Shown here: in pieces, positions 2,009 through 48,754 of the stretch
Layout: each line of letters opens with the position of its first letter
Position numbering within the stretch: the stretch's first letter is position 1
NCBI GenBank assembly: GCA_963616385.1
Contig: CAVELH010000002.1
Location: 1 to 48,754, forward strand
Length of the DNA: 48,754 bases
Origin: a bacterium
GTDB taxonomy: Bacteria > Bacillota > Clostridia > Lachnospirales > Lachnospiraceae
Reading direction: 5' to 3'
The notes under the pieces: model-generated
Databases searched by the model: none
Told to the model about the DNA's origin: nothing
Seen by the model: only the letters and a program-made list of their open reading frames with translations
Made by a program: the position numbers and the translations under genes

Positions 2009-2020
2009 ATTTCTCTCCCC

Positions 2021-2287: not shown

Positions 2288-2313
2288 CTGTAACTCAATC
2301 TCGCATCCTCCTG

Positions 2314-2652
2314 TTATTTATCATCATAATCCTTAATTTCACTATTCCAATGATTGATATTCCTTTGCGCTCCCTTTCTGGCAGTCTCTAAATGAGAACT
2401 GATAGCATTAAGCTTATTAATTATTCGCTGCAGCTCATACTCATTGAACATCTCATAGTTTCTTCCGTATAATGTTTCAAGCATTACTGAATCCACTCCA
2501 TACTGTCTGAGCTTATTCATTACATTCCGGCATTGTCCCAGCCCTGTTGTTATGCTCTCTACAACCGAATTGTTCGTAGCAATTTTCTCTCTGTATGAAT
2601 TTCTTTTTCCAACATAATGATTATATTTATTCACCATCTCATATCTTTCCAT
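2314..2652 (-). CDS. Small coiled-coil protein, putative effector partner
   Basis: 112 aa, strong GGAGG RBS, heptad-like pattern; first gene of the cassette. Confidence 0.5.
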   Translation of the reverse strand: MERYEMVNKYNHYVGKRNSYREKIATNNSVVESITTGLGQCRNVMNKLRQYGVDSVMLETLYGRNYEMFNEYELQRIINKLNAISSHLETARKGAQRNINHWNSEIKDYDDK

Positions 2653-2707
2653 CAGCGTCCTCCCCCCTTTTATTAGACATCCTTCTATTGCAATAACATA
2701 TAAGAAT

Positions 2708-2736
2708 AAAATAGACTATTTTATGTATGTTGTCAA
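2708..2736 (-). promoter_or_regulatory. Sigma-A-like promoter of the orphan cassette
   Basis: Minus strand TTGACA (2736-2731), 17-nt spacer, TATTTT (2713-2708); both boxes lie within palindromes. Confidence 0.55.
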
Positions 2737-2754
2737 CATGCAACAACTGCACAT

Positions 2755-2799
2755 AAAAATACCGCACCAGAATCACAATCCATGTGTTCCGGTGCGGTA
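2755..2799 (-). terminator. Intrinsic terminator after the phosphohexomutase gene
   Basis: TACCGCACC (2760-2768) / GGTGCGGTA (2791-2799) stem followed by a T-run on the minus strand. Confidence 0.75.
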
Positions 2800-2832
2800 A
2801 TCTTTATATCTTATTATTCTATTTAATTCAAT

Positions 2833-4560: not shown

Positions 4561-4574
4561 GATGTTCCTCCTTT

Positions 4575-31218: not shown

Positions 31219-31512
31219 AATTTAACTTCGCTTTCTATATATTTGCATAGTTATAATAAAGTTTATCATATACCCAGACGATATACAAGCAGTTGTCGAT
31301 TCGTAAGTAATATACACAAATAATAGGTAATTACACAGATATTTTATAATGCAAATACACGAATAATTTGTAGTTATTTGACGAGCGTTTTTGTTTGCCA
31401 TACATATTAGATTATTTTATAATACATTCATCATATGAATTTAGTTTGATTTACATCTTCCATTTATCAATCTTCCAACCATACTGAATTTAACAATAGT
31501 GATTCATATGAT

Positions 31513-31549
31513 ATAAAAAGAGAAGCCACCCATCGACTTCTCTTTTTAT
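31513..31549 (-). terminator. Intrinsic terminator after the Rad50-like gene
   Basis: ATAAAAAGAGAAG / CTTCTCTTTTTAT perfect 13-bp stem right after the stop at 31553. Confidence 0.8.
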
Positions 31550-31552
31550 GAT

Positions 31553-33955
31553 TTATACCTCTATTACATTGCCTCCAAGCATATCCGCCATGGCAGGCTC
31601 ACAGGTCATAAATATAACCTGATTATGCTTGGCAAATTCACAGAGCAGCTTGGCAGAATTCTTTCTTCTTGCAGGATCCATATCAAGCAGAATGTCATCA
31701 AGCACGATAACTCCGCCCTCATCCTCAAAGAAGAAATCAAGCACAGCAAGCTTAAATGCCAGAAGAATTGTACTCTTAGTTCCCTCAGATAAGAGCTTAT
31801 AGGAATTCACAGGTATTCCCCTGCTCGTAAGCTCTAGTGAAAGATTCTCTCCCATATTCTCTATATGAACTCCATCTAAGGTTATAGCACTTAGATATTC
31901 GCTCATCCTTGACATAAGCTTATCCGTTGGCTTCTCCCCCATGCTATCCTTAATATCAAGAAAATCCCTCTCTATTCTGGAATATATTCTATACTCGTTA
32001 AGCCTCTTCCTGTGTTCATCTAAACACAGTGAAGCCTCATCCTTAAGCTCATCTATGTCCAGCTCGTCTATCTCTGCGGCAAGCCTACTCTTTAACTGAA
32101 AGCCTGTCTTGTATCTCTCACCAAGCTCAATAATAGCTTCCCTGAGCCTTTCCTCCTGCTCCTCAAAATCGTCGTTCTCCGCAAGCAGTGGAAGCTCACT
32201 AAGGCGTTTTTCGTACACAGCCTCATCCTTTTTCTTCTTGTCTATGGCAAGCTTAAGACCTTCCTCGTCCCCGAAGCTTTCCTCATATTCCTTAAGCCTT
32301 TTTTCAACCAAAGCCTTTACAGCATCAAGACTTCCAGCTCTATATTTATCCCTATACTCATTTACCTTATCATCAAGAGAAGGGGAGATATCAAGCTCGG
32401 ACATAATCTCATACGAAGTAAGCTCCTTTTCCATTTCCTTTATGGTCTTTCCCTCAAGCTTTGCATTTATACTCTCAGAAAGTCTCTGCTGTAGCAAATG
32501 CTTATCACTGCATTGTTTTCTATATTCTGCAAGCTTCTTTGTCGTCTTAACATTATACTCTGATAATAGGGCATAAAGCTTTGCCTTAAGCTCATCTATC
32601 TCATTTCTAAGCATCTCTGAGTTAATGCCATCTGTATCGACAACTATCTCCGCAACCTCCGGAATATCAAGCTTTACATAACCATTTAGGCTTAATGTCT
32701 CGTCAGACTTAATTGCCCTTGTTCCGTCAGCACTCTCAACATTAATTATGGTGTTATTTAAAGGCTTAACCTGTGCCTTAAACTTAACACCCATAAGAGA
32801 CCTCTCCATCGCAGAAAGCTCAGCCTCAATTCTTCCAGCCTCGTCATATGCCTTATCAAGTTTTTTAATGCTACGCTCGTTAATATCTATATCATCAAGC
32901 CTTGCCTTAAGCTCCTTTATCTCTGACAGCTTAGCTTCAAGCTTATCACGCTTCTGTCTCCTCTCACGCTCTGCAAGCTGCGCCATAAGGCTCTCTATCT
33001 CCAAATGCTCCTCTTTACGTTTCGGCCAGTCAAGCAAGGTCTGCTTCATAGAAGAAAGCTCACTTCGTATACGCTGCAAAAGCTCTGTATTAGCCTTTCT
33101 GTTGTGAAGATTAACCTTATTGTCAACGATATAATCAAGCCTCTGCTGTGTCTTTTTCTGCTCCTGCTCGCACAAAGCAAGGTCATCATCCAATCTCTGT
33201 ATCTCAGCAACCTTCCCCCTTACCTCATCTAATTTATGCTCAGCTCTCTTCCAGGTATAATATGTCTCCAATATCTTACCAACACTGTTTTTCCACGGAT
33301 CATTCAAATCCTTTATGCGTCCCCTGTCCTTCATCGGTGCGTTCATCTCGAAATCCCAGCGTCCGTCAAGCTCTGACATTCTCTCCCTTAAGGTTGCCTG
33401 AAGCTTATTTATATCTATTCCACCTATCACAGATGCATACTCAGACATTTTCTTCTTAATTACAGCCTTGCCATCCGTGTCCGACGCATCAAATATCCAT
33501 TTTAACACAAGCTCCTCATTGCTCTGCATGCCAAATACAACATTACTGTAAAATGCCGCTCCATACTTAAGCAGCTCAGCAAGCTTCTCCTCCGCACCTT
33601 TAGACTTATAACCCGTCTTATCAACAGCCACCTTAGTCGAAGGCTCAGAAAGCCATGTCTTTGAAACCTGAACCTCACTTCCTGCCATATCAAGAACAAC
33701 GTCACCATCTATATATATTCCGTCAGAGATATCCTTTCCCGATGGTTTATAGAGCTCAACGAAATTCTTATATCCCGATGAGCTTTTTTTCGTGTCAGCC
33801 GGCTGAAAGAGCGTGCTGTAAATACCGGCAATCATTGTACTTTTTCCAGCCTCATTATCACCCACTATAACATTCATGCCATCTGAGAATTCTATATCCC
33901 TGTCAATTATTCCCGCGAATTGTCCTGTTTTATATTTTTTAATCTTCATGGTCAA
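31553..33955 (-). CDS. Rad50/SbcC-like (YhaN-type) coiled-coil ABC ATPase
   Basis: Walker A GDNEAGKST, Q-loop FGMQ, long coiled coil, signature LSEGT, Walker B IVLDDILLDMD. Confidence 0.88.
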   Translation of the reverse strand: MTMKIKKYKTGQFAGIIDRDIEFSDGMNVIVGDNEAGKSTMIAGIYSTLFQPADTKKSSSGYKNFVELYKPSGKDISDGIYIDGDVVLDMAGSEVQVSKTWLSEPSTKVAVDKTGYKSKGAEEKLAELLKYGAAFYSNVVFGMQSNEELVLKWIFDASDTDGKAVIKKKMSEYASVIGGIDINKLQATLRERMSELDGRWDFEMNAPMKDRGRIKDLNDPWKNSVGKILETYYTWKRAEHKLDEVRGKVAEIQRLDDDLALCEQEQKKTQQRLDYIVDNKVNLHNRKANTELLQRIRSELSSMKQTLLDWPKRKEEHLEIESLMAQLAERERRQKRDKLEAKLSEIKELKARLDDIDINERSIKKLDKAYDEAGRIEAELSAMERSLMGVKFKAQVKPLNNTIINVESADGTRAIKSDETLSLNGYVKLDIPEVAEIVVDTDGINSEMLRNEIDELKAKLYALLSEYNVKTTKKLAEYRKQCSDKHLLQQRLSESINAKLEGKTIKEMEKELTSYEIMSELDISPSLDDKVNEYRDKYRAGSLDAVKALVEKRLKEYEESFGDEEGLKLAIDKKKKDEAVYEKRLSELPLLAENDDFEEQEERLREAIIELGERYKTGFQLKSRLAAEIDELDIDELKDEASLCLDEHRKRLNEYRIYSRIERDFLDIKDSMGEKPTDKLMSRMSEYLSAITLDGVHIENMGENLSLELTSRGIPVNSYKLLSEGTKSTILLAFKLAVLDFFFEDEGGVIVLDDILLDMDPARRKNSAKLLCEFAKHNQVIFMTCEPAMADMLGGNVIEV

Positions 33956-35076
33956 TTCTCCTTACATGACATAACTAATTCATATGCTGCTGCCAGAATA
34001 TCCGGCTCATCAACATATTTCTTAAGAAGCTTATTCTCAATGCTTCCCGTCATGGTTTCCTCATCTATCATCTGTGTGGTTATTTCCTTAGTTATATTAA
34101 GATATATTTTATCCAGATATAAAACCTTCTCCGCAACCAGCTTTTCTATCATCTGTCGCTTTTCATACTCATCTGAATTAGCTGTGCCATTCACAGTAAG
34201 GCGAAGAACCGTATTTTTCACATCAATACCAGACAGCTTTTCCGATATGAGCTTCTCTATCTTATCATCAGGTGTCACATTTATCACAAGCTCCAAAAAT
34301 CTTATTATTCCGGTCTTTACACGCTTAGCCCTTATATATTTCTGATTACCTATATCAATGACAAATACAGAGCCCTCCACGTTATTGTGTATGTTGGTCT
34401 GCTGATGCGTTCCCGCATTATATATTCTTGTATGTCCGATAACCTTATCATACTCACAGTAAGGCTCAGGTACATGTGCATGACCGAGCAGCCACACATC
34501 AACCGGAATATCATTTAACTCCTCCGGGCTCATGCTGTAATAATCGCCCTCCCTGTCAAATGACAAGCCTGAAAGTGAGCCATGCGCTATACCGATATTG
34601 GTAAATGAACCATCAAGCTCCTCTTCCTTAACCCATCCAAGTGCATTTTCGGAAGCATGCTTGTCATGACATATACATGGATAAAATCTTACCTTCTCAC
34701 CATTTATCACAGCTTCAAGCATCTTATTCTCAGTAAACAGGTATATATTATCACCGCAGACCTCGCTGAAATAATTCCACAATGTAGGCTCATCATCGTT
34801 GTAATAGTCATGGTTTCCCGGCAAGACATACACAGTTCCATTGTTAAATTCGTTCAGTATCGCACACACACTCTTGATTAGCTTCTGTGTGACATTGTGA
34901 TTCTCGAACAAATCTCCCGCAATTATAAATGCATCGCATTTTTCACTGTTGGCTATATCAACAGCATTTTGAAGTGCCTTAAGTCTTGCCTCTGTAATTG
35001 TATTTCTCGTCTCAACGGACTTAATCGTTGCATACTGTAGTCCGAAATGGCAGTCACTTATGTGTAAGATTTTCAC
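33952..35076 (-). CDS. Mre11/SbcD-like (YhaO-type) metallophosphoesterase nuclease
   Basis: HISDCH, AGDLFE, PGNHD, AHG, LGHAH; GTG start; abuts or overlaps the start of the ATPase gene. Confidence 0.9.
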   Translation of the reverse strand: MKILHISDCHFGLQYATIKSVETRNTITEARLKALQNAVDIANSEKCDAFIIAGDLFENHNVTQKLIKSVCAILNEFNNGTVYVLPGNHDYYNDDEPTLWNYFSEVCGDNIYLFTENKMLEAVINGEKVRFYPCICHDKHASENALGWVKEEELDGSFTNIGIAHGSLSGLSFDREGDYYSMSPEELNDIPVDVWLLGHAHVPEPYCEYDKVIGHTRIYNAGTHQQTNIHNNVEGSVFVIDIGNQKYIRAKRVKTGIIRFLELVINVTPDDKIEKLISEKLSGIDVKNTVLRLTVNGTANSDEYEKRQMIEKLVAEKVLYLDKIYLNITKEITTQMIDEETMTGSIENKLLKKYVDEPDILAAAYELVMSCKEN

Positions 35077-35450: not shown

Positions 35451-36197
35451 TTATTTTATCACATTTAATGCATGTATCAGTTTATTTATCTCTAATATAT
35501 TTTCATCCCATTCAATATTCGTATGTGTCCGTTTAACATAATAATTAAAATAACGTTCCACATTATCTTTGTCAGGATATTCACTTACAAACGGATAATT
35601 CAAAAAATATTCCATGGCATCTACCACGGCAATAAGCTTATTATTTCTTCTTTTTATCGAATATACCTTATCAATTATATACATACGGTTAAAAGGCACT
35701 TCTGTTATATTGTTGCTATCCATCACATATTTGATACGCATTTGACTTCCTGTATATCTAACAGCATCATAAACAGCAATATTACCATTTAATAACACAC
35801 TCGTTTTATGCCTTTTAATATTAACATTTGTTTTGTCCTTTGAAGCACTATGACTCTCCATATATGCCCCCACGCCGCCGAGAACCAATGCTGATATTAA
35901 AAAAAATGGTATTGCCAACATACTAAATAAAGCTACATTTCTTAAAGTCATATTACTGCTTCTTTTACTGTATATAATAAACACAACACACGCAATTACA
36001 AATGATACAGCAGTAAGGACAAGACACAATTTCATTAACGCAAACACTGTCCTATATGTTTTTTTCTTATCTAAGCTTTCACGATTATTACAAGCAAGTC
36101 CACTTGCTGCAATTTCATTATCTATTGTGTAGTCCACCTGTTGAAGCATGCGCTGAAAGTCATCCATAGGAGAGTGATCTGATATAAAATGTGCCAT
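35451..36197 (-). CDS. Hypothetical two-TM membrane protein
   Basis: 248 aa, two hydrophobic helices then a soluble C-terminal domain; AAGGA RBS. Confidence 0.75.
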   Translation of the reverse strand: MAHFISDHSPMDDFQRMLQQVDYTIDNEIAASGLACNNRESLDKKKTYRTVFALMKLCLVLTAVSFVIACVVFIIYSKRSSNMTLRNVALFSMLAIPFFLISALVLGGVGAYMESHSASKDKTNVNIKRHKTSVLLNGNIAVYDAVRYTGSQMRIKYVMDSNNITEVPFNRMYIIDKVYSIKRRNNKLIAVVDAMEYFLNYPFVSEYPDKDNVERYFNYYVKRTHTNIEWDENILEINKLIHALNVIK

Positions 36198-36214: not shown

Positions 36215-37543
36215 TTATACCATAAGACTTAATATTGGTTTATTTGACGCCTCAACGATACGTTTATCCGCTGCTGCCTTCTCTGTCTCGTGCATATCCT
36301 CATATATCATTGAGCGAAGAAGATAACCCTCTATAAATTCTCCATTTGTCAATGTTATGATGTAATTGGCTGCATCTAATGCCTTCCCATAATCCTTAAG
36401 TGCCTTATATGCTACACAACGATACACATACAGATTAACATTTCTTGGCTGCTTAACACATTCAGAACGAAACTCAACAACAGCTGCATTAAATAGTGCA
36501 TTTGCCTTTTCTATATCATTTTTCTTGTAAAATGCTAATGCTTCATAATATACCGCTGCATAATATGGAACTAAATCCTCCGCCTTATCCTTGTGTTTTT
36601 TTATTTCCCTTGCATAATATATTGCGCTGTCGTAGTCTGCTTCTGTGAGTTTCTTAAACATTACATAATATGCCATACGATCATCATGCTCAGAATTAAG
36701 CACTGATAGAGCCACCTGCTCAACCTCATCAAACCTTTTTGCCTTAAACAAAAGATTTGCCTTATCTTTTATAAGATTGTCCCATCTTCCATCATCGTTA
36801 TTCGCCATAAAATAATTATCTATAACTTCTATTGCCTCATTGTACATTTGCTCATGATCATAATACATCATTAAATCATATTTAAATCCAAGGTCATCGG
36901 AGAACATATCTATTGCCTTATCAAGCGTCTGCTTTGCTTCCTCTGCGTTATTCATTGCAAGCAATGCCATAAATCTGTAGTGATATCCTTCAAACGCCTC
37001 TGGCTTAATCTCTATCAAATGCTTTGCATTATACAATGCCTTAGAATAATCTCCAGCCTGTATACACAGCTGTATCTTCTTGACCGTTGCCTTACCTTCA
37101 TATGGTGCCTGCTGTTCAGCCTTTCCATAATAATATAATGCAGCATCCACTTCGCCCTGCTCAGCGAGACAGTTAGCCAGATGAAAATATACGTTATTTG
37201 TATCAAATCCCAGCTCTATTGCCTTTGAATATGACGCCTTTGCTTTGGCTATATCATTATTCAGATATGCAACATTTCCCTCCTGATAGTAAATAACACC
37301 CTGCGAATCATCTATCAGCTTAGCTTTAGCAAGCTCCTTTTCAGCAAGCTCAAGCTTAGAAATCATTATGTACATTACCGCCCTATCTAGATATATCTTA
37401 ATAACCTTTTTATCTATTTTCTCTGCTGCATCAAGCTTTTCAATTGCAAGCTCTATCTTGCCAGTAGCAGCAATCGCTTCCGCCTGCCTTATTAACTCCT
37501 GGACCTCTATTGAAATATTACTCTGTGTCATCGTCTGTTCCAT
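36215..37543 (-). CDS. Tetratricopeptide-repeat protein
   Basis: Repeated TPR patterns (YYQEGNVAY...AKASYSKAIEL; YFHLANCL...ALYYYGKA); AGGAGG RBS. Confidence 0.88.
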   Translation of the reverse strand: MEQTMTQSNISIEVQELIRQAEAIAATGKIELAIEKLDAAEKIDKKVIKIYLDRAVMYIMISKLELAEKELAKAKLIDDSQGVIYYQEGNVAYLNNDIAKAKASYSKAIELGFDTNNVYFHLANCLAEQGEVDAALYYYGKAEQQAPYEGKATVKKIQLCIQAGDYSKALYNAKHLIEIKPEAFEGYHYRFMALLAMNNAEEAKQTLDKAIDMFSDDLGFKYDLMMYYDHEQMYNEAIEVIDNYFMANNDDGRWDNLIKDKANLLFKAKRFDEVEQVALSVLNSEHDDRMAYYVMFKKLTEADYDSAIYYAREIKKHKDKAEDLVPYYAAVYYEALAFYKKNDIEKANALFNAAVVEFRSECVKQPRNVNLYVYRCVAYKALKDYGKALDAANYIITLTNGEFIEGYLLRSMIYEDMHETEKAAADKRIVEASNKPILSLMV

Positions 37544-37579: not shown

Positions 37580-38821
37580 CTAAGCAATTAATATCTTTGG
37601 AGATATTTCTCTATTTTTTTCTCTATACATTTCAAAATACTCTTCCATCTTATCTTCATTATTCATTTTATTATATATTTCACTAATGACGTAATATACA
37701 GTATGGATGTCATTCACAAATACTGTTTCCATATATTCCGCACATTTTAATGCCTCATCATAATTTCCCAACGAAATTAATGATAATGTTCTATATAAAT
37801 ACAAATCAAAAATCATTGGATATTTTAAGCACTTTTCCATATATTTTTTTAATGCTTCTTTAAATATTTCTTCAGATTTATCAGTATTTTCCAATATTTT
37901 ATATATGTAGCCTTCATAATATATTGCACTTAAATACCATATTTCATAATCTGAATCGTTTTTATTATCCTTAATAAGATTTATACATTGTAGCGCTTTA
38001 TGATAATTTTCCAAATGAATTAAACTGATTATCATAATCAAGGCTATTTCATCAAGATACAGTGTCTTAAATAAATCCGTTCCAAGCTTATCAACCTCAT
38101 CATACTCTCTCAAATTATATAATATTTTTATTTTCATTTGTTTAACATATATATTATCAGCAAATTCAGAATCATTTTCTGAATATATCTCTAAGCATCT
38201 TAACGCTTCCTCATAATTACCAATAGTACTGTAATAATTAATCAAGTCATATTTTATGTTGATATCATCAGGGAATTTATCCAGACAATAATTAATAATC
38301 TCCGTAGCTCTTTCTATGTTATTGTACCTGAGATTAACAAGAAAATTAAAATGATAGCCACTGCTTATATCAGGAAATTCCTTCATAAGCTTTTGTGCAT
38401 TTATCAGACATTTTCTATAATCTTTTGCAGAAAAATAAATTGCAGCCTTTGCTTCCACAGCTCTACTCTTATCTGGATCCAGACCTTCCGCACGAGACAG
38501 CATTTCCACAGCTGCATTGTGCCTTCCAAGATATTGATATACATTACCAAGATGAAATGTCGAGCTTTCCGTAACGTATCCACCATTTATAGCATCCTCA
38601 TATGCCTTCATAGCTAATTGCATATTTCCATCCGAAAACTCTATTATCCCCTTATAAAATGACATAACTGCAGCCTCTGGTGCAAGCATACTTGCCCTCT
38701 CCAGATACTCCCGCGCTGCTTCTATGTTCATATCATCTATGCACCTTACAATATTTTCAAAACATAATCGGATTTCTTTTTCATTATCAGCTAACTGTTG
38801 TACTGTCTGTGCACTATCCAT
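37580..38821 (-). CDS. Tetratricopeptide-repeat protein, paralogue of 36215-37543
   Basis: TPR patterns (FHLGNVYQYLG...AVEMLSRA); colinear shared motifs GYH..F, F.DD...KYDL..YY, A.YYE, LY.YR. Confidence 0.88.
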   Translation of the reverse strand: MDSAQTVQQLADNEKEIRLCFENIVRCIDDMNIEAAREYLERASMLAPEAAVMSFYKGIIEFSDGNMQLAMKAYEDAINGGYVTESSTFHLGNVYQYLGRHNAAVEMLSRAEGLDPDKSRAVEAKAAIYFSAKDYRKCLINAQKLMKEFPDISSGYHFNFLVNLRYNNIERATEIINYCLDKFPDDINIKYDLINYYSTIGNYEEALRCLEIYSENDSEFADNIYVKQMKIKILYNLREYDEVDKLGTDLFKTLYLDEIALIMIISLIHLENYHKALQCINLIKDNKNDSDYEIWYLSAIYYEGYIYKILENTDKSEEIFKEALKKYMEKCLKYPMIFDLYLYRTLSLISLGNYDEALKCAEYMETVFVNDIHTVYYVISEIYNKMNNEDKMEEYFEMYREKNREISPKILIA

Positions 38822-39067: not shown

Positions 39068-39364
39068 TTATGCTCCTGCGAGTGACTGGCTTAACTGCTC
39101 GTCAGTATCCTCAAGAGTATCTGCAACACTTGTAAGCTGTGTGCTGATTCCTTCAAGAATTTCTGGGAACTGCTCAAGAGTTGTCTGCATCTCCTCATAG
39201 CTCTGGAAGAATGCATCCTGTGCTGCACCATCCCATGTTGACTCAAGGCTGTCAACCTCTGAACGAAGATCTGCTAAAATCTGTGTAATCTCATCTGCCT
39301 TATTCTGGAACATTGTTGAGGAATCTCTTAACTCCTCTGGAGTGATAGTAATTCTATCTGCCAT
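39068..39364 (-). CDS. esxA: WXG100-family T7SS protein, EsxA-like
   Basis: RITITPEELR, central WDG, tail ADTLEDTDEQL; AAGGAGG RBS. Confidence 0.9.
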   Translation of the reverse strand: MADRITITPEELRDSSTMFQNKADEITQILADLRSEVDSLESTWDGAAQDAFFQSYEEMQTTLEQFPEILEGISTQLTSVADTLEDTDEQLSQSLAGA

Positions 39365-39445: not shown

Positions 39446-39742
39446 CTAAACTGCTATGTTAGATATCTCATTTTCAATATCAGCATATGTATCTACTGCA
39501 TCCTTAAGTAAATCCCGTATTTCTTCTACTATCTCAACCTGTCTTTTCATATCAGGAATCCATGAGCTGTCATAGTTTGAAAAATACTGTGTACTGGCTG
39601 CTGATTTCCAATCTGTATTTCTAAGATTGTCTATAGCACTTTTCAAATTAGTAAAGGCTGTATTAAGCTCGGTGTATTTATCGCAGTACAACTGGTATGT
39701 ACGACTTAAAGTATCCAAATCAATTTCTAATTTGTTTGCCAT
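39446..39742 (-). CDS. WXG100-like protein
   Basis: 98 aa, central WKS variant of WxG, C-terminal YADIE (YxxxD/E). Confidence 0.8.
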   Translation of the reverse strand: MANKLEIDLDTLSRTYQLYCDKYTELNTAFTNLKSAIDNLRNTDWKSAASTQYFSNYDSSWIPDMKRQVEIVEEIRDLLKDAVDTYADIENEISNIAV

Positions 39743-39753
39743 AACTATTCTCC

Positions 39754-41229
39754 TTATCTAAATACTGTATCTACAATATAATCACCAAGTGTTGGTTTTT
39801 GTACACTTGATCCAGTAACTATATTCCCAATTGATATAGTTGAACCAAATGAAGAACTGCCTGTTGCCGTAAATCCAGTTACTGTAGCTCCAATATTGCC
39901 TAAATTACCAGCATTAAATATAAATCCTGTATCTCCTAATGCACTGTATCCGGTAGTAATTGCAGCTTTGCTCACATCTCTGACATTCTTCACCGTCTTG
40001 TATGTATTCTTAATTCCACTGCTTGTATCGTTATTAATTACTCCATTTTCATTTAATCCATCCAGTGTTATAGATAATGGATCATCTATAAACGATACCA
40101 TCTTGTCAAAATTCTTAAAGCCCTGCGGAACTCCTTTATCATCTACCAGATTTAGTAACGCTGCTGCACCCTTATCTGGGAAATCAACAATTGTTTTACC
40201 AATCTTCTTAAGCTTCTTAATATCCCCATAATCTATACTTGGCAAATGATATTTGACGACCTCACCTAACTCGCTGACATATTCCACGCCTATTACCTTA
40301 CCTTTTTTATTGACGATATTCCTTGCATATGACCATGCATCACCATTTTTTGCAAGATTATCAAGCTCATATTTAGCTGGATTTATTCCTTTAGTATTTA
40401 AGCTTGTGCTATTATTTAATCTTGACTTCCAATTTTTTCCAAATTCTGTAATTCCAGTTACAAATTCTATCGTATCTAATCCTATAAATAACACATCGCC
40501 TATTTCGTCAAAAAATTCTACGCCAAATTGTTCGTTCAGGAATTCTCCTGTATCATCAAACAGGGTTTTCATATCATAATCTGCCCATTCTTTTGCTGCC
40601 TCTTCATCTCCACTTGTATAGCTGATAACCCGGCGTGTGCTACCATACACATCAACCAACGCCTTCGCTGCACCCCAGCCTAAGCCTATTGCAGTAAGCA
40701 CACCCCATACTCCGGAAACAGGGAAACACAATACAAATGCTGCAACCGCTGCAACCGCTATAATAATTTCTCCAACTAACTGTATGACACCACTATCCCA
40801 AAGCCATACAGCAATATCTTTTATTACCTCTATTCTGTCTGTATAATACTTAACAATTCCCTCACACAGCTTCTGGAAAGCACTCTTTTCATACTCAGGC
40901 TGTATGCCATTTGCGTGCATGAAATCATTTGAATCTGCATATAATCTCTGTGCAAGATTTTCTTCCTCATCCTTAACATAATCATATGTATTTCTTAATG
41001 AATCCCGAAATCTTATGAGGTCATTTTTCTTATTTTCAATATCATTTCTTGAATTACCCACATTACCATGTGCCGGCCATTTATGACCATAGTCTCCAGG
41101 AAGTGCCGATATTGAGTTCTGTACACCATTAAGGAAATTAATTCTATCATCATATATATTCAAAATATGACTGCTGATATCATCTATCGCATCATCCCAT
41201 TTGTCGAAATTAATTTTTATCTCGCTCAT
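39754..41229 (-). CDS. Putative T7SS effector: LXG-like N-terminus, central TM hairpin, Gly/Thr-rich C-terminus
   Basis: Helical first ~110 aa with LPG turn; IIIAVAAVAAFVLCFPVSGVWGVLTAIGLGWGAAKAL; flanked by WXG100 genes. Confidence 0.65.
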   Translation of the reverse strand: MSEIKINFDKWDDAIDDISSHILNIYDDRINFLNGVQNSISALPGDYGHKWPAHGNVGNSRNDIENKKNDLIRFRDSLRNTYDYVKDEEENLAQRLYADSNDFMHANGIQPEYEKSAFQKLCEGIVKYYTDRIEVIKDIAVWLWDSGVIQLVGEIIIAVAAVAAFVLCFPVSGVWGVLTAIGLGWGAAKALVDVYGSTRRVISYTSGDEEAAKEWADYDMKTLFDDTGEFLNEQFGVEFFDEIGDVLFIGLDTIEFVTGITEFGKNWKSRLNNSTSLNTKGINPAKYELDNLAKNGDAWSYARNIVNKKGKVIGVEYVSELGEVVKYHLPSIDYGDIKKLKKIGKTIVDFPDKGAAALLNLVDDKGVPQGFKNFDKMVSFIDDPLSITLDGLNENGVINNDTSSGIKNTYKTVKNVRDVSKAAITTGYSALGDTGFIFNAGNLGNIGATVTGFTATGSSSFGSTISIGNIVTGSSVQKPTLGDYIVDTVFR

Positions 41230-41239
41230 GACGTCCTCC

Positions 41240-41536
41240 CTAAATATCTATAAGCTCCTGTAAACGTTCCATCTCTTCTTCTATAATTGCTGCCTGCAAT
41301 TCATCAAGCTCGCTATACAGATTATCATCTGCACTACTCAAATCGTTATCACATTCCGGTGTTCTTGGCACAAGCCCATCTAAATCCCCAGAGGTAAATT
41401 TCATTGTATCAGCCTTTACAGCATTTATAATGTCATCCTCCAAATCACTAAGCTTATTCTTTATTCTGGTAACATCATGCCCACCATCATCAAGCTTTCC
41501 TCTTATACGATTTATCTGCCAGCTATAATCATTCAT
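41240..41536 (-). CDS. Small acidic helical protein, putative effector partner
   Basis: 98 aa, GGAGG RBS, between a WXG100 gene and the effector. Confidence 0.6.
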   Translation of the reverse strand: MNDYSWQINRIRGKLDDGGHDVTRIKNKLSDLEDDIINAVKADTMKFTSGDLDGLVPRTPECDNDLSSADDNLYSELDELQAAIIEEEMERLQELIDI

Positions 41537-41555: not shown

Positions 41556-41858
41556 TCAGCTCTGACCTGTAAGTCCGTTGCCTATCTCAGCATCCCAGTC
41601 AACATAGCTCTGCTTTATATCCTTAAGGTCATCTCTCATAACCTCCAGCAAATCATACTCATGCGACATATATAATTTAAGTGTATCAAAAGCTTTCTCA
41701 AACTCGTCCTTGGATTTTCCAACCCAATTCCCAAGCAGGTCCTCGGTCTGAGTTTCAAGACTTTCTCTTATATCAGCAAATTCCGTAACCGCTGTATCAA
41801 GAGCACTTATGGCATCATCCATGCCCGAAGTATCTATTCTTTGCACTGTACCGCTCAT
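41556..41858 (-). CDS. WXG100-family T7SS protein
   Basis: 100 aa, central WVG, C-terminal YVDWD (YxxxD). Confidence 0.88.
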   Translation of the reverse strand: MSGTVQRIDTSGMDDAISALDTAVTEFADIRESLETQTEDLLGNWVGKSKDEFEKAFDTLKLYMSHEYDLLEVMRDDLKDIKQSYVDWDAEIGNGLTGQS

Positions 41859-42078: not shown

Positions 42079-45000
42079 TTACATTTCATCCGTAAGGAAT
42101 GTCTTAATTTTAACAATCTTGCTTCCTGCAAAATAATATGCATCTCCAGGAACCAGTGCTTTAGAATAAGATCTTGCTATCTTTGGTGTGATATCTACAA
42201 TCTTGATATTAGCCATATCCTCAAATATATAGTACTTTTTCTGTTCCTTAATATACTTAATTGCATCATAAGTATTAAATGCAATAGCAGCATTTTCAAA
42301 GCTGGCGAAAAGTACCATAAATTTATATTTCTTGTACTCCTTTATAAATTTATTCATAAATGCCTGAAGCTCTTTTTTCTTTGCTATTTCGTTAAGCACC
42401 TGTTTGTCATTAATTACAAATAATATATATGGTGCCTCAGCAAAGTTATAGTTGCTTCTTCCCGCTACATCTATATCCTCCTGACGCTTAATCATAATCT
42501 CATCTATCTTTTCCATGAAGCTCTGGGTGTCCGCAGCCTTAACAGAATATGCCTTAACTGTTGTATTATTCTCATATTCCTTAAGCTCTCCCTCGTCATT
42601 ATCAAGAATATATATGTTAGATGGATATTCAAAAATATTCTTTTCAAAATGATTAAGTATAAGCTTAGTAAGATTTGTTTTTCCTTTACCCTCTCCTCCA
42701 GTAATAACCATATAATTTTCTGCCATAAGGTCGATATACTGATAATCAACATTTGCATAATCAATAGCGTATGGCAGCTTGGACAAATCTGAATACAACT
42801 CAGGATTGTTTTTCATAACCACACTTTCGACTACCATCTTAGGTACAACAGGTATAATTCTGGCTCTGCCTCCAGTAAACCTGGCAGAATTATTTGTTAT
42901 GAACTTCTTCATATTCTCTACTCGTTCAATCTCTTTATTACCCTCAAAAGCAAGAGCTGTCTGAAATTCCTTAACCTGCTTATCTATCATGCATAAGCCT
43001 CTACCCGCAGTTTCCTTAGGCTCTATCCTGCATCTTCCAAATAAATTTGCATACTCTGCTTTCTCAGTGCAGAAAAGCACGAGCCTTGTGCCATAATTTG
43101 CAAGAGCTTTAAATCCAAATGAGTTAGCCTGCGTACCCGTAACTATAAGATTTATACCTACACTAATACCATTTCGCGATAAACTGAGTAAAATATCAAA
43201 GTAATCTGCATACTGCTCTCTGAAAACAGCAACATTATCGAGTATAACCAGTATCTGAGGGACATCCTTAAAGCCCGCTTCAATATATGCACTGAATGTA
43301 CCCAGCCCCTTTTTAGAGAAAATTTCTTTACGTTCCTCAATAAATCCCTGTAGCATTTTAAACAGATTTACAAGCTTTTCTTCCTCAGAGCCTAAAACAA
43401 CTCCACCAACCTGCTTTGCCTCCTCAAATATTTTTAATGCCATATTTCCACAGTCAATAATATAAATGTTAATATCCTCAGGTGAATATTTATCTAACAG
43501 ATTATAAAGTATTGTCTGAACCATGGTTGTCTTACCCATCTGTGAGGCTCCTGCAATATACACATTGCTATCTGACAGATTAATAGTAAGCTCCTTCTGT
43601 AACTGCTGCTCAGGATCATCATATATACCTATATTCACGCATATTGACTGACTTGTTGTCTTATCAAAGCTTGATATTTCCTTCATGTACAACACATCCT
43701 TAAGAGGCGGCTGGCATATTCCCGGTAATCTCTTTATATTCTCTGCTTCACAATAGTCATGTGTGTATTTAACTATAGCCTCAAGCTGTGTAAGTGCCTT
43801 ATCATCATCATCCTTTTTCTTATTAGAAAATACAACACTTCTCTTTCCCCATAAATTAAGCTCTTTTAATTCAAATGTTTTTTCATCACCCACGGCATTA
43901 GATGCCTTGGCTCCACTATATGCAGATTGAAATAATTCAAAAATCTCATTATTACCAACTTGAAAATATGCACGTCCAGGTTCCTTTATTTCAGCTGCAA
44001 GCGGGGACTTAATAACCTCATTACTATCTTCCTTAGTCTGTACCTTAAGACACAGCTTAAACTTGGAATTAGACCAAATCTGATTATCTACAACGCCAGC
44101 CGGCTTCTGTGTGGCAAGAATAAGGTGCACACCAAGTGTTCTTCCTATTCGGGCAGCACTTACAATTTCCTTCATAAAGTCTGGATATTCTGCCTTTAAC
44201 TCGGCAAATTCATCACAAACCATAATCAGATGTGGCATAGGAATTGTAACCTCGCCCTTTTTATATTTTTTTATATAATCACTAATATTATTAACACCAG
44301 CTTCTGCAAATATCTCCTGTCTCTTTATAAGCTCTGCCTTAATAGAAAGCAGCGAACGATTTATTTCCCTACCATCTATATTTGTTATTGTTCCTATCAG
44401 ATGAGGCAAATCCTTAAACTGATTCGCCATTCCTCCTCCCTTGAAATCAATTATCATAAATCCAACATCATAAGGATGGAAAAGAGTTGCCATTGATAAT
44501 ATATAGCTTTGAATTATCTCTGACTTACCAGAACCAGTTGTACCGGCAACCAAGCCATGAGGTCCATGCTTTTTATCACTTAAATCGAGATAAACCAATG
44601 TCTCATTGCCTCGTATTCCCAATGGTGCTGCCATCGATTTATATACCTGAGAGGCTGCCCAACGAGACTTCAAATCCAAGTCATCTACCTTCATGATATC
44701 TAACATTTCAAATAAAGTTATATTGTGCAATGTACTTTCAACACTCACCTGATTAACATACACTGAGCCAAGCTTAAGCATAGCCTTATTGAATGCGTCC
44801 ATATTTACATTATTGTATATAAATGATGCTTTCATATCACCATCATGTGCATTTACAAGCAACCCCTTAGAATTATCTGTAAGTGTTATTACCCTGTCAG
44901 CCTCCATAGGAATACATTCTCTATGCTCCTCTAAAAATATAAATATACATTTAAGCTCCCTTCCTCTTCCATAGTATCTGGAAATCGGATGATTATTTAT

Positions 45001-46647
45001 ACTTTCTGACTTCACTATGAATATGACAAAATATGGTACATCTATATCGCCTGCGGTAGACTCCGCAATACTCTCACGACGCAATAACTCTTTATATATA
45101 TTCTCAAATATATACTTCACGGATTCCTCATCATATATAAAATTCCTTATTCCACCCTGACCACATGTGATGTTTTTCAACCATCTCATTCCATAGAAAA
45201 ATTTCTTATCCTTCTCGTCAAATACATAGAACAATTTAATATCATCGTAAAAATGAGTTACTGACAAATCTGTGGTAATAATTGATACCATATTAAGAAG
45301 CGCCTCATGTGTACCAACGAATCCAACTGTATTACATTCTCTTAATGCAATAACAATCGGTGCATTGTCGATATATTCATATGAATCAGCAAGCTTTTCA
45401 GGATAATCTATTATCTTATCCTCTGTATCCTTAAATTCCTGCTTCGTATATTCTACCTGCTGTAAAGACCTGACCTTTCCTGTTCCAAGACGAACAGTAA
45501 GAAAATCGTCATCTGTTCTTGTTCTTTCAAACAGCCTTGTATCAAAATCAAATACCTCCTGAAGCTCCTCCTCCACTCTGTAATATTTATCATTTAATAT
45601 CTCTAATTCTTTTTCCCTTTTATTCTTAATCTCTGTCTCTTTTTCATTTATGTATTCTGTATATTGCTGTTCTCTGTGCTCTACATCCTTTTTGTATTGA
45701 TTTTTATTTACAAAATATGTGATAAAGGAGGTAGCAATGCCCATCAGCATCATAGCTCCGCTATACATAATAAACATTTTGTTTGATGACATTCTTCCTC
45801 TTATTGAAATCATAAGAACAAGCGTAATAATACTTGGTATGATACTCATCAGAAAATTCTTTTTATCCTTCTGTGGTGCAGGCTTTGGCATCAATACCTC
45901 TATAGCTTCCTCCTTTATATTTCTCCGTATGCGTACATTTCTCATAAATTGTGGAAATGAATGGAAGCTTTTTGAGTCCAAAACATCAACATATGACAAA
46001 CCATTAAGTTTTTTGAAATCCTGCTTTGATGTATAAAGGCAGTCACCACTCAGATAAAAACCTACTCCGTCAAGCATAAAAAAATCAGAATTATGTATAA
46101 TTTGTTCCGTACCTGACATTTTAGAACCATTGATATAAATACCATTTTTACAATCATTATCAATTATCTTATAATTATTTTCACACGCAATAAGAGTTAA
46201 TACATCCCCCTGCACCAACGGATTAGTTATGTAAATATCACAAAATTCACGTCCACCTATACTTATTTGTTGTCTCCCCGAAATATTTATTGCCCTGTCA
46301 TAATTGTAATCCTGATCATCGAAATTAATAAGAAATGAGATATGAAATAAAAGCGACTTGCTCTCTTTATATTTTAATGTTATATCCGTTCCATGTATAA
46401 GCTCCATAGAACGGAGCTTCATAATCCCCTTAGAATCTATGTATATGTTATCTCCACACATCAGCTTCCAGCCATATTCCGTTTTGATAAACTCCAGCAT
46501 TATATCATCAAAAAATCTATCCCTGTCAAAACGAACATTGCAGTGTTTATATGTTCCTACACAAAATATTCCATTTTCTGTTTCTTCAAGCGGAATTTCA
46601 TGGTAAAAACCACTTCCATATATAATAAGCTTATAATTGTAATCCAT
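42079..46647 (-). CDS. essC: T7SS FtsK/SpoIIIE ATPase EssC
   Basis: N-terminal FHA-like region (NGIYING), two TM helices, D1 HGPHGLVAGTTGSGKSE...DEFAELK...RIGRTLGVHLILATQKP, D2 GASQMGKT, D3 GGEGKGKT; start moved to 46647 (GGAGG RBS). Confidence 0.95.
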   Translation of the reverse strand: MDYNYKLIIYGSGFYHEIPLEETENGIFCVGTYKHCNVRFDRDRFFDDIMLEFIKTEYGWKLMCGDNIYIDSKGIMKLRSMELIHGTDITLKYKESKSLLFHISFLINFDDQDYNYDRAINISGRQQISIGGREFCDIYITNPLVQGDVLTLIACENNYKIIDNDCKNGIYINGSKMSGTEQIIHNSDFFMLDGVGFYLSGDCLYTSKQDFKKLNGLSYVDVLDSKSFHSFPQFMRNVRIRRNIKEEAIEVLMPKPAPQKDKKNFLMSIIPSIITLVLMISIRGRMSSNKMFIMYSGAMMLMGIATSFITYFVNKNQYKKDVEHREQQYTEYINEKETEIKNKREKELEILNDKYYRVEEELQEVFDFDTRLFERTRTDDDFLTVRLGTGKVRSLQQVEYTKQEFKDTEDKIIDYPEKLADSYEYIDNAPIVIALRECNTVGFVGTHEALLNMVSIITTDLSVTHFYDDIKLFYVFDEKDKKFFYGMRWLKNITCGQGGIRNFIYDEESVKYIFENIYKELLRRESIAESTAGDIDVPYFVIFIVKSESINNHPISRYYGRGRELKCIFIFLEEHRECIPMEADRVITLTDNSKGLLVNAHDGDMKASFIYNNVNMDAFNKAMLKLGSVYVNQVSVESTLHNITLFEMLDIMKVDDLDLKSRWAASQVYKSMAAPLGIRGNETLVYLDLSDKKHGPHGLVAGTTGSGKSEIIQSYILSMATLFHPYDVGFMIIDFKGGGMANQFKDLPHLIGTITNIDGREINRSLLSIKAELIKRQEIFAEAGVNNISDYIKKYKKGEVTIPMPHLIMVCDEFAELKAEYPDFMKEIVSAARIGRTLGVHLILATQKPAGVVDNQIWSNSKFKLCLKVQTKEDSNEVIKSPLAAEIKEPGRAYFQVGNNEIFELFQSAYSGAKASNAVGDEKTFELKELNLWGKRSVVFSNKKKDDDDKALTQLEAIVKYTHDYCEAENIKRLPGICQPPLKDVLYMKEISSFDKTTSQSICVNIGIYDDPEQQLQKELTINLSDSNVYIAGASQMGKTTMVQTILYNLLDKYSPEDINIYIIDCGNMALKIFEEAKQVGGVVLGSEEEKLVNLFKMLQGFIEERKEIFSKKGLGTFSAYIEAGFKDVPQILVILDNVAVFREQYADYFDILLSLSRNGISVGINLIVTGTQANSFGFKALANYGTRLVLFCTEKAEYANLFGRCRIEPKETAGRGLCMIDKQVKEFQTALAFEGNKEIERVENMKKFITNNSARFTGGRARIIPVVPKMVVESVVMKNNPELYSDLSKLPYAIDYANVDYQYIDLMAENYMVITGGEGKGKTNLTKLILNHFEKNIFEYPSNIYILDNDEGELKEYENNTTVKAYSVKAADTQSFMEKIDEIMIKRQEDIDVAGRSNYNFAEAPYILFVINDKQVLNEIAKKKELQAFMNKFIKEYKKYKFMVLFASFENAAIAFNTYDAIKYIKEQKKYYIFEDMANIKIVDITPKIARSYSKALVPGDAYYFAGSKIVKIKTFLTDEM

Positions 46648-46661
46648 TTTTCCTCCCTCTG

Positions 46662-46907
46662 TTAAACATGAATACATGTTCCATTTTTTAGATTATATTC
46701 TGCCAATAATCTTCCACCCTTAAGTAAAGCAATGGGATTTTCAGCCTTAAGATATCTCTGGTTGATATCATTTGTATCAATATTCAGACCATATGCACTG
46801 TTTAGTGCAAGCACAAGATCGTTGGCGGTTATATCAAGTGGTACCTCTACATCATGCTGCTCATTTCTTTCTACAATATTTAAAACAATTACTACTTTGT
46901 CTGCCAT
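46662..46907 (-). CDS. EsaB/YukD-family ubiquitin-like T7SS protein
   Basis: 81 aa from ATG 46907 (AAGGAGG RBS); DVEVPLDITANDLV...LAEYNLKNGT pattern; immediately upstream of essC. Confidence 0.85.
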   Translation of the reverse strand: MADKVVIVLNIVERNEQHDVEVPLDITANDLVLALNSAYGLNIDTNDINQRYLKAENPIALLKGGRLLAEYNLKNGTCIHV

Positions 46908-46932
46908 ACATATCCTCCTTATTATCATTCCT

Positions 46933-47988
46933 CTAAAGAAGCAGCATTGCTGTATCCTTATACATGTGAGCATGCCGCATAGACGCTATAGTCTGTTCAT
47001 TCAATAATTCTGTTTCTTCTACATATTGAGTTATTGTACAATTAGAAAGATACTCACTTTCAATTATGCAATTCCTGTCTGTCGCATCGTATCTGTTACA
47101 TACAAACATGAATTTTCTTTCATCAGAATAATCAAAATTTTCCAGCATACTTTCGCTTTTCCACACCGATAAAGCGTCCTGTTTTAAAATGGTGAGGATT
47201 TTATCACATATACTCATAATCATAAGATTAAATTCATCTAATACCCCATCCGTATCCACTACTATATAGTCATACTTCTTTTCCTTTATCAGCTCCTGAA
47301 TAAAATATATGTAATCCTTTTTTTCAATACCATATGTTACCAGTGCTCCCTGAATAGGTTTTATATAATCAAATTCCTCATTGCCAGTATAATTTATAAG
47401 ATTTGACATTATATCCTTTGCCTCAACAGATAGCTCCTGACAAAACATGGCATTTACATATTCCCTATTTCTCATATACCATTGGAAAGACTGCACCGAT
47501 TCCACATTCAGATATAAAACCTGCTTATTATAATCAGCTAATTCGCTGCAAATATTTAACGCTACTGTTGTCTTTCCAGAGCCGCCAACTGGTGAATACA
47601 CCAAAATAGTTTTCGTATCTCCTATCTTTTCTTCTGAATATTCTCTTAGCTGCTTATCAAGCTTTCCTGAAATTTTATAAATAATTTCTCTGACACTTGA
47701 ATATTTATATATACTTACAAACCCCTCCCGATTGCTTATATCCTCCGGATCATCCTCCAGTACAAAAACCATACCTATATTCTGCCTGTCAACAGCATCT
47801 ATATATTGATTTTTATCAATTACCAATACATCTATTTTTTGAGGCCGGCTAAAATACCAGTTGAAGTACTCTTTATCTGTTATAAGAGTTATTTCAGCAT
47901 AATCTCCCATTCCTCTAAGCAATCCTATCTCCAGACAGGAAAGATATATTTCGTCAAAAACACAAACAACCATTGAAACCTTATTCAT
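46933..47988 (-). CDS. CpaE/MinD/ParA-like P-loop ATPase with receiver-like N-terminus
   Basis: VYSPVGGSGKTT, VLYLNVE, YDYIVVD, VCNRY; N-terminal DEIYLSCL...IDVLVID...IYKYSS. Confidence 0.8.
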   Translation of the reverse strand: MNKVSMVVCVFDEIYLSCLEIGLLRGMGDYAEITLITDKEYFNWYFSRPQKIDVLVIDKNQYIDAVDRQNIGMVFVLEDDPEDISNREGFVSIYKYSSVREIIYKISGKLDKQLREYSEEKIGDTKTILVYSPVGGSGKTTVALNICSELADYNKQVLYLNVESVQSFQWYMRNREYVNAMFCQELSVEAKDIMSNLINYTGNEEFDYIKPIQGALVTYGIEKKDYIYFIQELIKEKKYDYIVVDTDGVLDEFNLMIMSICDKILTILKQDALSVWKSESMLENFDYSDERKFMFVCNRYDATDRNCIIESEYLSNCTITQYVEETELLNEQTIASMRHAHMYKDTAMLLL

Positions 47989-48000
47989 AAATATCTCTCC

Positions 48001-48754
48001 TTAAATTTTGCTTACAGTATATCGACAATCCGCGATATCTATAACGTCACCTATATTAATCTCTGTATAGCAATCAGGCACAGCCTGTTCACCATTTATG
48101 TATGTTCCATTTGTACTCCCAAGGTCTTTAACAAATATTTTATCCTCGGCTACAACAAACTCACAATGTACACGACTGACTGCTGTTGATGAATGTATTG
48201 TACAATTTACTCCTTCTGTACCCTTACCGACAATATAATTAATGTCATTTACTATAATATCTGTGTTCTTCGCAGGATTATCAGAAACAAGTATAAAGTA
48301 ACCAAATACCATTTCCCTGCCTGCTGCCTGCTTTACAGCTGCATTTTCCTCAATATTTCGTATTCCGTATTTTTTGTTATTAAATGCATTTTGTATATCA
48401 TCCAGAGATAAAGCAGAATCCATACAATCATGAAACAGAACATCTACATATTTATCATTCATACATTCCGACTGATAAAGCATTGTCGTAATAAGCGTTC
48501 TGACATTTTCCTCAAAGGATTTATATGTATCCTTATTGCTTATAATAGCTACTGGCAAACAAACAAGCCTCACATTAAGTTTATCATCTATAAATATTTT
48601 ATTAGGTCTTATATCTACTGTCTCAATCTGTGTAAAGCTGTCAGTCCTTATTTTTATTATTATTGATATAAGATTTTCAATAACTGTCATTATATCCTGT
48701 GGTCTCGCAGATACAGAAAAACGTTCTAAGCTATTTAAACCCTCTGTATCATAC
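48001..48754 (-). CDS. FHA-domain protein with DUF6382-like (kinase-fold-like) N-terminal part, 5'-truncated by the window edge
   Basis: FHA motifs VGK...VSRVH...DLGSTNGTYING; the frame is open upstream of the track start to the window end (YDTEGLNSLERF...), with RPNKIFID...LVCLPV. Confidence 0.8.
   Translation of the reverse strand, partial: YDTEGLNSLERFSVSARPQDIMTVIENLISIIIKIRTDSFTQIETVDIRPNKIFIDDKLNVRLVCLPVAIISNKDTYKSFEENVRTLITTMLYQSECMNDKYVDVLFHDCMDSALSLDDIQNAFNNKKYGIRNIEENAAVKQAAGREMVFGYFILVSDNPAKNTDIIVNDINYIVGKGTEGVNCTIHSSTAVSRVHCEFVVAEDKIFVKDLGSTNGTYINGEQAVPDCYTEINIGDVIDIADCRYTVSKI

Follow-up and report, generated by a model that had tools for sequence, protein, structure and literature searches.

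A putative T7SSf-type type VII secretion core operon with a predicted soluble EssB-like pseudokinase adaptor and a TadZ-like ATPase in a Lachnospiraceae draft genome

T7SSf, a type VII secretion system (T7SS) variant, was defined in Clostridia by Garrett, Higginson and Palmer (microLife 2024; PMC11217815) and is the described system closest to the gene cluster reported here, which reaches one end of a 48,754-nucleotide window (the whole stretch of DNA analysed) from a member of the Lachnospiraceae. In the available text of that paper, the parts of T7SSf are TsfA (WXG100), TsfB (YukD-like), TsfC (EssC with FHA domains), TsfF (a PPM phosphatase), TsfJ (DUF6382, two transmembrane helices and an FHA domain) and TsfV, an ATPase with a TadZ-like atypical receiver domain at its N-terminus that was counted into T7SSf because it is flanked by T7SS genes. 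The system is known there from gene neighbourhoods only, and for T7SSf-j the authors expressed lower confidence in the core component sets. Control by threonine phosphorylation was raised for T7SSe, T7SSf and T7SSj. The DUF6382-FHA proteins were placed in the loci of these same three types and not in tad loci, which goes against the preliminary description of this DNA, where such proteins had been put in clostridial tad loci; Tad genes were noted beside T7SSg and T7SSh. The FHA domains of EssC in T7SSb, the type of Staphylococcus aureus Ess and Bacillus subtilis Yuk, were described as lacking phospho-threonine residues. According to the part consulted of a second study, YukD of B. subtilis bridges YukB and the pseudokinase YukC and aids YukB in binding YukC (PMC12637312). 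No further paper using the terms T7SSf, TsfV, TsfJ (in the T7SS sense) or DUF6382 was found in the literature searched.

The window is the entire contig C2 of a draft genome (2.39 Mb, 229 contigs, 95.8% complete), and the core operon is thus truncated at the contig end. Open reading frame (ORF) calls and family profiles gave a run of four genes, all on the minus strand. The first, J2 (48001..48753, with the contig ending at 48754), is cut at its 5' end and retains the 3' 250 codons of a putatively soluble, pseudokinase-like (DUF6382-like) protein with an FHA domain (PF00498, E = 4.1e-14). It is followed by V (46933..47988), a TsfV-like, TadZ-like two-domain ATPase of 351 aa with an AAA_31/MinD-ParA-type P-loop domain at residues 126-283, by B (46662..46907), a YukD/EsaB-like ubiquitin-fold protein of 81 aa (PF08817, 28.7 bits, cut-off 27), and by C (42079..46647), EssC, an FtsK/SpoIIIE-type membrane ATPase of 1522 aa when counted from the start backed by a ribosome-binding site (TIGR03928, 1197.5 bits, cut-off 778.4). 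The intergenic gaps measured from such starts were exactly 12, 25 and 14 bp, and all four genes were placed as the preliminary description had stated. An AGGAG or GGAGG motif lies ahead of each start codon that sets these gaps; the yukD-like gene has the ribosome-binding site AAGGAGGA before its ATG at 46907, and its product is 37-56% identical across 7 related loci. Further genes follow 3' of essC at short gaps, reaching approximately 35451.

Set against T7SSf as presented in the available text, the locus is alike in its WXG100 proteins (three PF06013 matches, the best of 80.2 bits), its YukD-like protein and its FHA-bearing EssC, in an N-terminal FHA region of EssC that keeps the phospho-threonine motif only partly, in its DUF6382 plus FHA protein (for the J2 of the window itself, DUF6382 was detected below threshold only), in a TadZ-like ATPase flanked by T7SS genes (here J and YukD), and in having no EssB, EsaA or EssA. 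It is unlike T7SSf in that no PPM phosphatase is found in the assembled locus, J is present twice (on the upstream contig C220 and in the window), a zinc-ribbon/transmembrane protein that is DUF5050-like by a protein Atlas lead only is coded upstream, two TPR proteins are coded downstream, and the host lies outside Clostridium. The locus was accordingly read as T7SSf-type with variant accessory content, an interpretation that was largely anticipated in print. The proposal of an uncharacterised system stood in one respect only: its components are experimentally uncharacterised, but the system counts as catalogued, since the same component set is published as T7SSf. The reading preferred here, with a probability of roughly three in four, is that the region is a T7SSf-type T7SS core operon in which the FHA protein is predicted to be a soluble pseudokinase adaptor resembling EssB and the ATPase probably sites or gates machine assembly.

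The canonical T7SSb partners of EssC were not found. As had been noted from the sequence, essB is missing from between yukD and essC, and neither essA nor esaA occurs in the window; a hidden Markov model search of the whole genome gave no match to YukC/EssB (PF10140) and only sub-cut-off noise for EsaA (TIGR03929, 12.2 bits) and EssA (PF10661, at most 16 bits). PF10140 was absent from all of 200 other genomes sampled from the same GTDB phylum, with a positive B. subtilis control, and none of YukC, EsaA and EssA was seen in relatives with flanks of 9-10 kb. The description of the locus as a variant T7SS, with EssC present and these three proteins missing, was therefore upheld. The likeness to T7SSb lies in an EssC that passes the EssC equivalog model, in the presence of YukD/EsaB and EsxA, in EssC FHA domains without phospho-threonine residues and in a predicted catalytically dead kinase-like module coded beside EssC; the differences are the missing EssB/YukC, EsaA/YueB and EssA/YueC and a kinase-like module that here appears soluble, is fused to FHA and has no Pfam YukC match.

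The upstream side was recovered in part on contig C220 (2.5 kb), whose terminal ORF comprises the first 38 codons of a J2-like protein. This ORF starts much as does P0023, a database protein of 310 aa that is 90% identical to the FHA fragment of the window, so C220 joins onto the window end, leaving about 25 codons unassembled. A second J-type protein, J1 (333 aa), is also coded on C220, with DUF6382 (32.0 bits, cut-off 26.7) and an FHA domain. Before J1 (C220 positions 2-1369; locus L027) a larger gene is present by its 3' portion; its orthologue in the same-genus locus L017 (11291-12952, 553 aa) has a zinc-ribbon-like N-terminus, one hydrophobic or transmembrane helix and a large outer domain. 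Pfam gave nothing on either the 455-aa or the 553-aa upstream protein; as a lead only, the L017 protein was nearest to zinc-ribbon/DUF5050-named clusters of the protein Atlas, which recalls the DUF5050 propeller TsgL of T7SSg. Membrane proteins were coded just upstream in all same-genus loci. Reading upstream for essA, essB and esaA, as had been proposed, thus returned J1 and the zinc-ribbon-like gene in their place.

The assignment of the FHA protein as DUF6382-like held for J1 and for the orthologues in loci L033 and L034 (28.2 and 33.6 bits, above the cut-off), but the 250-aa fragment in the window gave no Pfam match to DUF6382 and P0023, its full-length relative, reached only 16.2 bits. 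DUF6382 was matched by 10 of the 17 members of the J alignment, and Pkinase, at E ≤ 10, by none. An AlphaFold2 (AF2) model of P0023 with a predicted local distance difference test score (pLDDT) of 85.8 consisted of a kinase-like fold (residues 7-192), a disordered linker (193-210) and an FHA domain (211-310). In a structural search of this model against 48,161 representative chains, the FHA domain gave Z scores of about 16, and for residues 7-192 values near Z 12 were obtained with both pseudokinases and kinases: the plant pseudokinase 6cpy_A (Z 12.8, 178 residues aligned), the EssB cytoplasmic fragment 4ano_A (Z 12.7, root-mean-square deviation 4.5, 179/209 residues), the B. subtilis T7b core unit 9qks_C (Z 12.2, 189/221 residues) and many kinases (Z 11.8-12.5). 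The kinase-like fold that had been suggested for the FHA protein is thus supported by the model. It became clear only in this wide structural search: in Foldseek with the whole model FHA domains dominated and a single kinase appeared, at rank 37, and the sequence profile of J matched only FHA domains among solved structures.

Hanks-type kinases have a conserved catalytic Lys, an HRD Asp and a DFG Asp. In the 17-row alignment the only invariant columns of the N-terminal domain of J were Y61 and P127, with no invariant Lys or Asp and no conserved catalytic residues. In having a predicted kinase-like fold without catalytic residues J resembles the pseudokinase EssB/YukC, and its N-terminal domain is short, as in EssB; it differs from EssB/YukC, which also has an extracellular C-terminal domain, in having neither a PF10140 match nor a transmembrane helix. 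A Kyte-Doolittle scan found no hydrophobic helix in the J2 fragment, in J1 or in the same-genus orthologues; among other loci the number varied, with two helices in L033 and none in the Clostridium loci L031 and L032. In the protein Atlas, taken as a lead only, the N-terminal domain of J was nearest to DUF6382 clusters; in one cluster, which has the name EssB/YukC, PF10140 occurs in 57% and PF19909 in 22% of the proteins, a mixture which hints that these two families touch. In the FHA domain, the residues known from the FHA literature to form the phospho-threonine site were largely retained (Ser in 16/17 rows, His in 17/17 and Asn in 17/17), and the Arg of the 'GR' motif was replaced by Lys in 15/17 rows. 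The soluble cytoplasmic form, with DUF6382 at the N-terminus and FHA at the C-terminus, is also described for TseJ among the TsxJ components of T7SSe and T7SSj; these types, as described in the available text, have TsxI/TsxK along with the membrane kinase TsxD but lack a TadZ-like ATPase, and none of TsxD, TsxI and TsxK was identified here.

The preliminary description of V as a CpaE/TadZ-like ATPase with a receiver-like N-terminus was borne out. V has an N-terminal domain of about 120 aa, without Pfam match, ahead of the P-loop domain. A 30-sequence profile of V matched 3fkq_A of the PDB with E = 2.1e-41 over residues 3-314, covering both domains, and MinD and ParA from 1e-18 downward over the C-terminal domain only. 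The same structure ranked first in Foldseek with the AF2 model (pLDDT 87.4, predicted template modelling score 0.84), followed by ParA and MinD. Its database title is 'NtrC-like two-domain protein' from Eubacterium rectale, and we take it to be the TadZ of Xu et al. 2012. The family TadZ-like_ARD (PF21194) did not match V at E ≤ 0.01, and reached a sub-threshold 20.9 bits on the orthologue in locus L120. The deviant Walker A motif of MinD and ParA is KGGxGK[ST], with a signature lysine. In the P-loop of V (xGGxGKT), G135, G136 and G138 were invariant and K139 and T140 near-invariant in the alignments, and position 134 was V, I, A or G and never K in the 8 rows shown, the signature lysine being missing.

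V shares with TadZ/CpaE (E. rectale 3FKQ) the receiver-like and MinD/ParA-type domains, but it lies between J and yukD-essC and not beside cpaF/tadBC. A CpaF gene was found beside V in none of 16 V loci, while 7 of 10 weaker two-domain relatives examined directly adjoined a CpaF homologue and none of them had YukD or EssC. A quick maximum-likelihood tree of 39 rows placed the 11 context-verified V rows in a 27-row clade with a support of 99 in the Shimodaira-Hasegawa-like approximate likelihood ratio test (SH-aLRT), a clade that also takes in 16 database proteins of unchecked context. All nine rows labelled TadZ-like fell outside it; eight of these have a CpaF neighbour and for the ninth, L036, no CpaF was found. 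All 30 rows of the V alignment were marked 'T7SS-linked' in this tree, with context checked for 11, and three so marked (P0019-P0021) grouped with a CpaF-linked TadZ of Paenibacillus. The genome also has its own Tad-type locus (contig C5, 27526-30988; L109), with an A24 prepilin peptidase, a TadZ-like gene coding for 317 aa without Pfam match, a CpaF-like T2SSE ATPase and a 248-aa protein. From the separate clade together with the gene context, V would be a TadZ paralogue dedicated to the T7SS locus.

EssC matched FtsK_SpoIIIE (E = 2.7e-49), had a single FHA match at residues 139-198 (E = 1.8e-5) and two hydrophobic helices at 263-309, and scored above the cut-off of the NCBIfam model T7_EssCb_Firm (TIGR03928). 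Its N-terminal FHA region had no conserved Arg and no SxxH motif. Clostridium loci that share the J-V-B-C arrangement code for an EssC with which it has 45% identity, which speaks only indirectly for a place in the TsfC clade. A co-fold of EssC residues 1-240 with J scored 0.00, and speaks neither for nor against binding.

The neighbourhood was surveyed in the 16 loci that have a full-length relative of the V ATPase. YukD and EssC were directly 3' of V in 15 of them. The order J-V-YukD-EssC was found in all seven loci from six genomes of the same genus and in all four loci from Clostridium cibarium, Clostridium sp. KNHs214, an uncultured Clostridia metagenome-assembled genome (MAG) and an Acetatifactor MAG, the two MAGs also sharing the downstream WXG100/TPR/EsxA order of the window; among three further loci at the level of the order it was kept in two. 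With the same order beside yukD-essC in 15/16 loci, J and V are not the closing genes of some unrelated upstream operon, which had been a preliminary concern. The spread is patchy, taking in 6 of the 24 species sampled within the genus and 3 of 300 further genomes from the order (E ≤ 1e-25). A second J-V-YukD-EssC system was found in the same genome (contigs C222-C223-C162; loci L029, L028 and L030), the EssC of which is 40% identical to that of the window. Locus L015, from a different species of the genus, matches these contigs collinearly with 93-97% nucleotide identity; this is high between species and could reflect recent transfer or a problem of binning. In this second copy, the membrane FHA gene on the upstream side was observed to be split across two reading frames.

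Several of the compared loci carried further genes. In L120 (3927-8845), from another genus of the same family, genes for a VWA protein, a PP2C phosphatase (633 aa), a kinase (462 aa) and a zinc-ribbon and DUF6382 protein without FHA domain precede, in this order, V, YukD and EssC, and the J module therefore also exists without the FHA domain. In L121 (6171-10173) a V-like ATPase (E = 7.4e-30) stands alone, neither YukD nor EssC being coded in the vicinity; it adjoins an IS91-type transposase and a phage-type integrase, and the locus is probably a disrupted one. A second subtype (L014 7031-8734, L015 7204-8811 and L016 11422-13065) codes before J for a protein with a signal peptide, a trypsin-like domain (Trypsin_2, 31 bits, in L014), one transmembrane helix and a cytoplasmic FHA domain; judged from its domains, it would be a membrane protease-like part tied to the T7SS through FHA. 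Also in L015 (3147-5855), four tandem, near-identical membrane-anchored proteins of 217-221 aa follow a 372-aa protein upstream of the T7SS core, in an arrangement resembling an immunity array. The Acetatifactor MAG locus L034 codes (1938-5788), just upstream of its two DUF6382-FHA genes, for a DUF5702 protein and for a TadE-like protein that has Listeria-Bacteroides repeats, so Tad-type genes do adjoin this kind of T7SS in at least one locus.

No PPM phosphatase (TsfF) was present on C2 or C220; the three PP2C genes of the genome are on C97 and C3, and six Hanks kinases are coded elsewhere in the genome. PP2C genes were present at L032 and L120. A Hanks kinase and two PP2C phosphatases were observed together with three FHA-domain matches on contig C3 (at about 5.2 kb, 18.6-22.1 kb and 29.4 kb), unlinked to the T7SS contigs; this cluster is a possible source of phospho-threonine marks for FHA proteins. 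In having a stand-alone FHA protein in a secretion operon the locus recalls, by analogy only, the threonine-phosphorylation control of type VI secretion (Fha/TagH with PpkA/PppA), and the FHA domain of J gave sub-threshold matches to the TagH model; it is unlike that control in having no kinase/phosphatase pair in the locus and in the change of the FHA Arg to Lys.

Under the preferred reading, EssC would be the channel and motor, and YukD would clamp it, as in B. subtilis. The pseudokinase-like domain of J may dock on EssC at its degenerate N-terminal FHA region, in the manner of EssB in T7SSb, and its FHA domain may link the complex to a phospho-threonine mark or to another partner, for which the membrane protein from the upstream gene and a target of any of the six Hanks kinases are candidates. 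A V dimer could act as an ATP-binding scaffold of the TadZ type, nucleating the complex or setting its position in the way that TadZ/CpaE serves Tad pili, and the WXG100 proteins and a 491-aa protein coded downstream would be cargo. A bolder version, which we put forward tentatively and consider doubtful as a whole, is that the EssB pseudokinase has its soluble counterpart in DUF6382, that in this lineage a cytoplasmic J-V scaffold replaces the whole EssA/EssB/EsaA complex and leaves EssC as the only polytopic part of a minimal machine, and that a captured TadZ paralogue sets the place and number of the machines.

Several observations weigh against the preferred reading. J here is without transmembrane helices and TsfJ has two in the available description, and the assignment to T7SSf was by component set and not by the position of EssC in the TsfC tree. 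None of the 17 members of the J alignment matched YukC (PF10140), and the structural scores for EssB and for kinases were tied at 11.8-12.8, so the fold of J is kinase-like but no more specifically EssB-like. The phosphatase gene was missing from the assembled sequence, although with 2.5 kb assembled it may lie farther upstream, and no PP2C was seen in the flanks of the same-genus loci L014-L017, where 65 of 75 listed ORFs were scanned. The short upstream assembly also means that further parts of the system may be missing.

The main rival, which we judge unlikely, gives J and V a regulatory role alone, with no structural substitution for EssB: J, through its FHA domain, would recognise a phospho-threonine set by a Hanks kinase coded elsewhere, V would be an ATP-dependent switch, and the scaffold would come from other proteins, such as the upstream zinc-ribbon/transmembrane protein or an FHA-bearing membrane protein. 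The retention of Ser, His and Asn in the FHA domain of J, the PP2C and kinase genes adjoining J and V in L032 and L120, the kinases and phosphatases coded in this genome and the membrane proteins just upstream in every same-genus locus are all consistent with it, and phospho-regulation of T7SSe/f/j was raised in the available text of PMC11217815. It has to contend, however, with the Lys that replaces the phosphate-binding Arg in most rows, with the lack of a kinase or phosphatase in this locus and in L014-L017, and with the resemblance of the predicted kinase-like fold of J to the EssB module, which binds EssC without phosphorylation.

An origin of J and V in a Tad-pilus or other unrelated operon, lying beside yukD-essC by chance, is very improbable. 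The TadZ-like nature of V would fit such an origin, as would the TadE-like gene two genes upstream of the J genes in L034 and the Tad genes beside T7SSg and T7SSh in the text of PMC11217815 available, but the J-V-YukD-EssC order recurs in several genera with gaps of only 12-25 bp here, the CpaF-adjoining TadZ-like genes fall outside the V clade, and the genome keeps a separate TadZ-like/CpaF locus on C5; the neighbourhood survey already contradicts this origin. There is just as little to recommend the view that the cluster is a decaying remnant that has lost secretion: the split membrane FHA gene of the second copy and the lone ATPase of L121 beside its transposase and integrase would fit decay, but all genes of the window copy are open and have ribosome-binding site motifs, and close relatives at 81-92% identity retain full-length proteins. 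Least probable of all is an ordinary T7SSb whose essB, esaA and essA were merely lost from the draft assembly, for although the contig ends inside the first gene of the run in an assembly of 229 contigs and EssC passes the T7_EssCb_Firm cut-off, YukC, EsaA and EssA gave no match above cut-off anywhere in the 95.8%-complete genome and were not seen in well-flanked relatives, YukC was found in none of the 200 other genomes sampled from the phylum, and the upstream continuation on C220 codes for other proteins.

The genes 3' of essC, all on the minus strand, begin with a WXG100-family protein of 100 aa (41556..41858; PF06013, E = 2.8e-12), which is 39-45% identical to proteins at the same position in L033 and L034. 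It is followed by a small protein of 98 aa (41240..41536), without Pfam or NCBIfam match and with a weak same-position match in L033, which is a candidate partner of its 491-aa neighbour. That neighbour (39754..41229), the putative cargo mentioned above, is a candidate substrate or membrane part; it too had no Pfam or NCBIfam match, has a hydrophobic stretch at 139-184, and showed a 24% match to a 410-aa protein at the same position in L034. A second WXG100-family protein, of 98 aa (39446..39742; PF06013, E = 2.1e-10), is kept in L033 and L034, and A, an EsxA-type WXG100 protein of 98 aa (39068..39364; PF06013, E = 1.4e-22, with the best score given above), is 63-67% identical to its L033 and L034 counterparts.

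Two proteins matching TPR families are coded next, of 413 aa (37580..38821) and 442 aa (36215..37543); they are paralogues with 27-29% identity to each other, and the latter is 31-32% identical to TPR proteins of L033 and L034. TPR proteins were also coded 3' of EssC in L031, L033 and L034. A membrane protein of 248 aa (35451..36197) with hydrophobic helices at 49-114 starts 17 bp after the TPR gene; no counterpart was found in the related loci compared, and its membership of the cluster is uncertain. Beyond it, at window positions 28765-35076, an 817-aa two-domain glycosyltransferase-like ORF, an 800-aa coiled-coil P-loop ORF and a 374-aa ORF were noted by eye only. The 800-aa and 374-aa ORFs resemble an SbcC/SbcD-type pair by the same inspection, and are apparently unrelated to the T7SS.

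For this family of secretion systems, the analysis indicates that the J-V-YukD-EssC block extends beyond Clostridium, and that the system can work, if it works, without a phosphatase coded in the locus and with a soluble J. The V ATPase forms a distinct clade that is split from the TadZ of pili, and DUF6382 is predicted to have a kinase-like fold resembling the EssB module, a link that was not found in the main text of PMC11217815. Taken together, these four points would give a concrete model for how T7SS variants that lack EssB may assemble around EssC.

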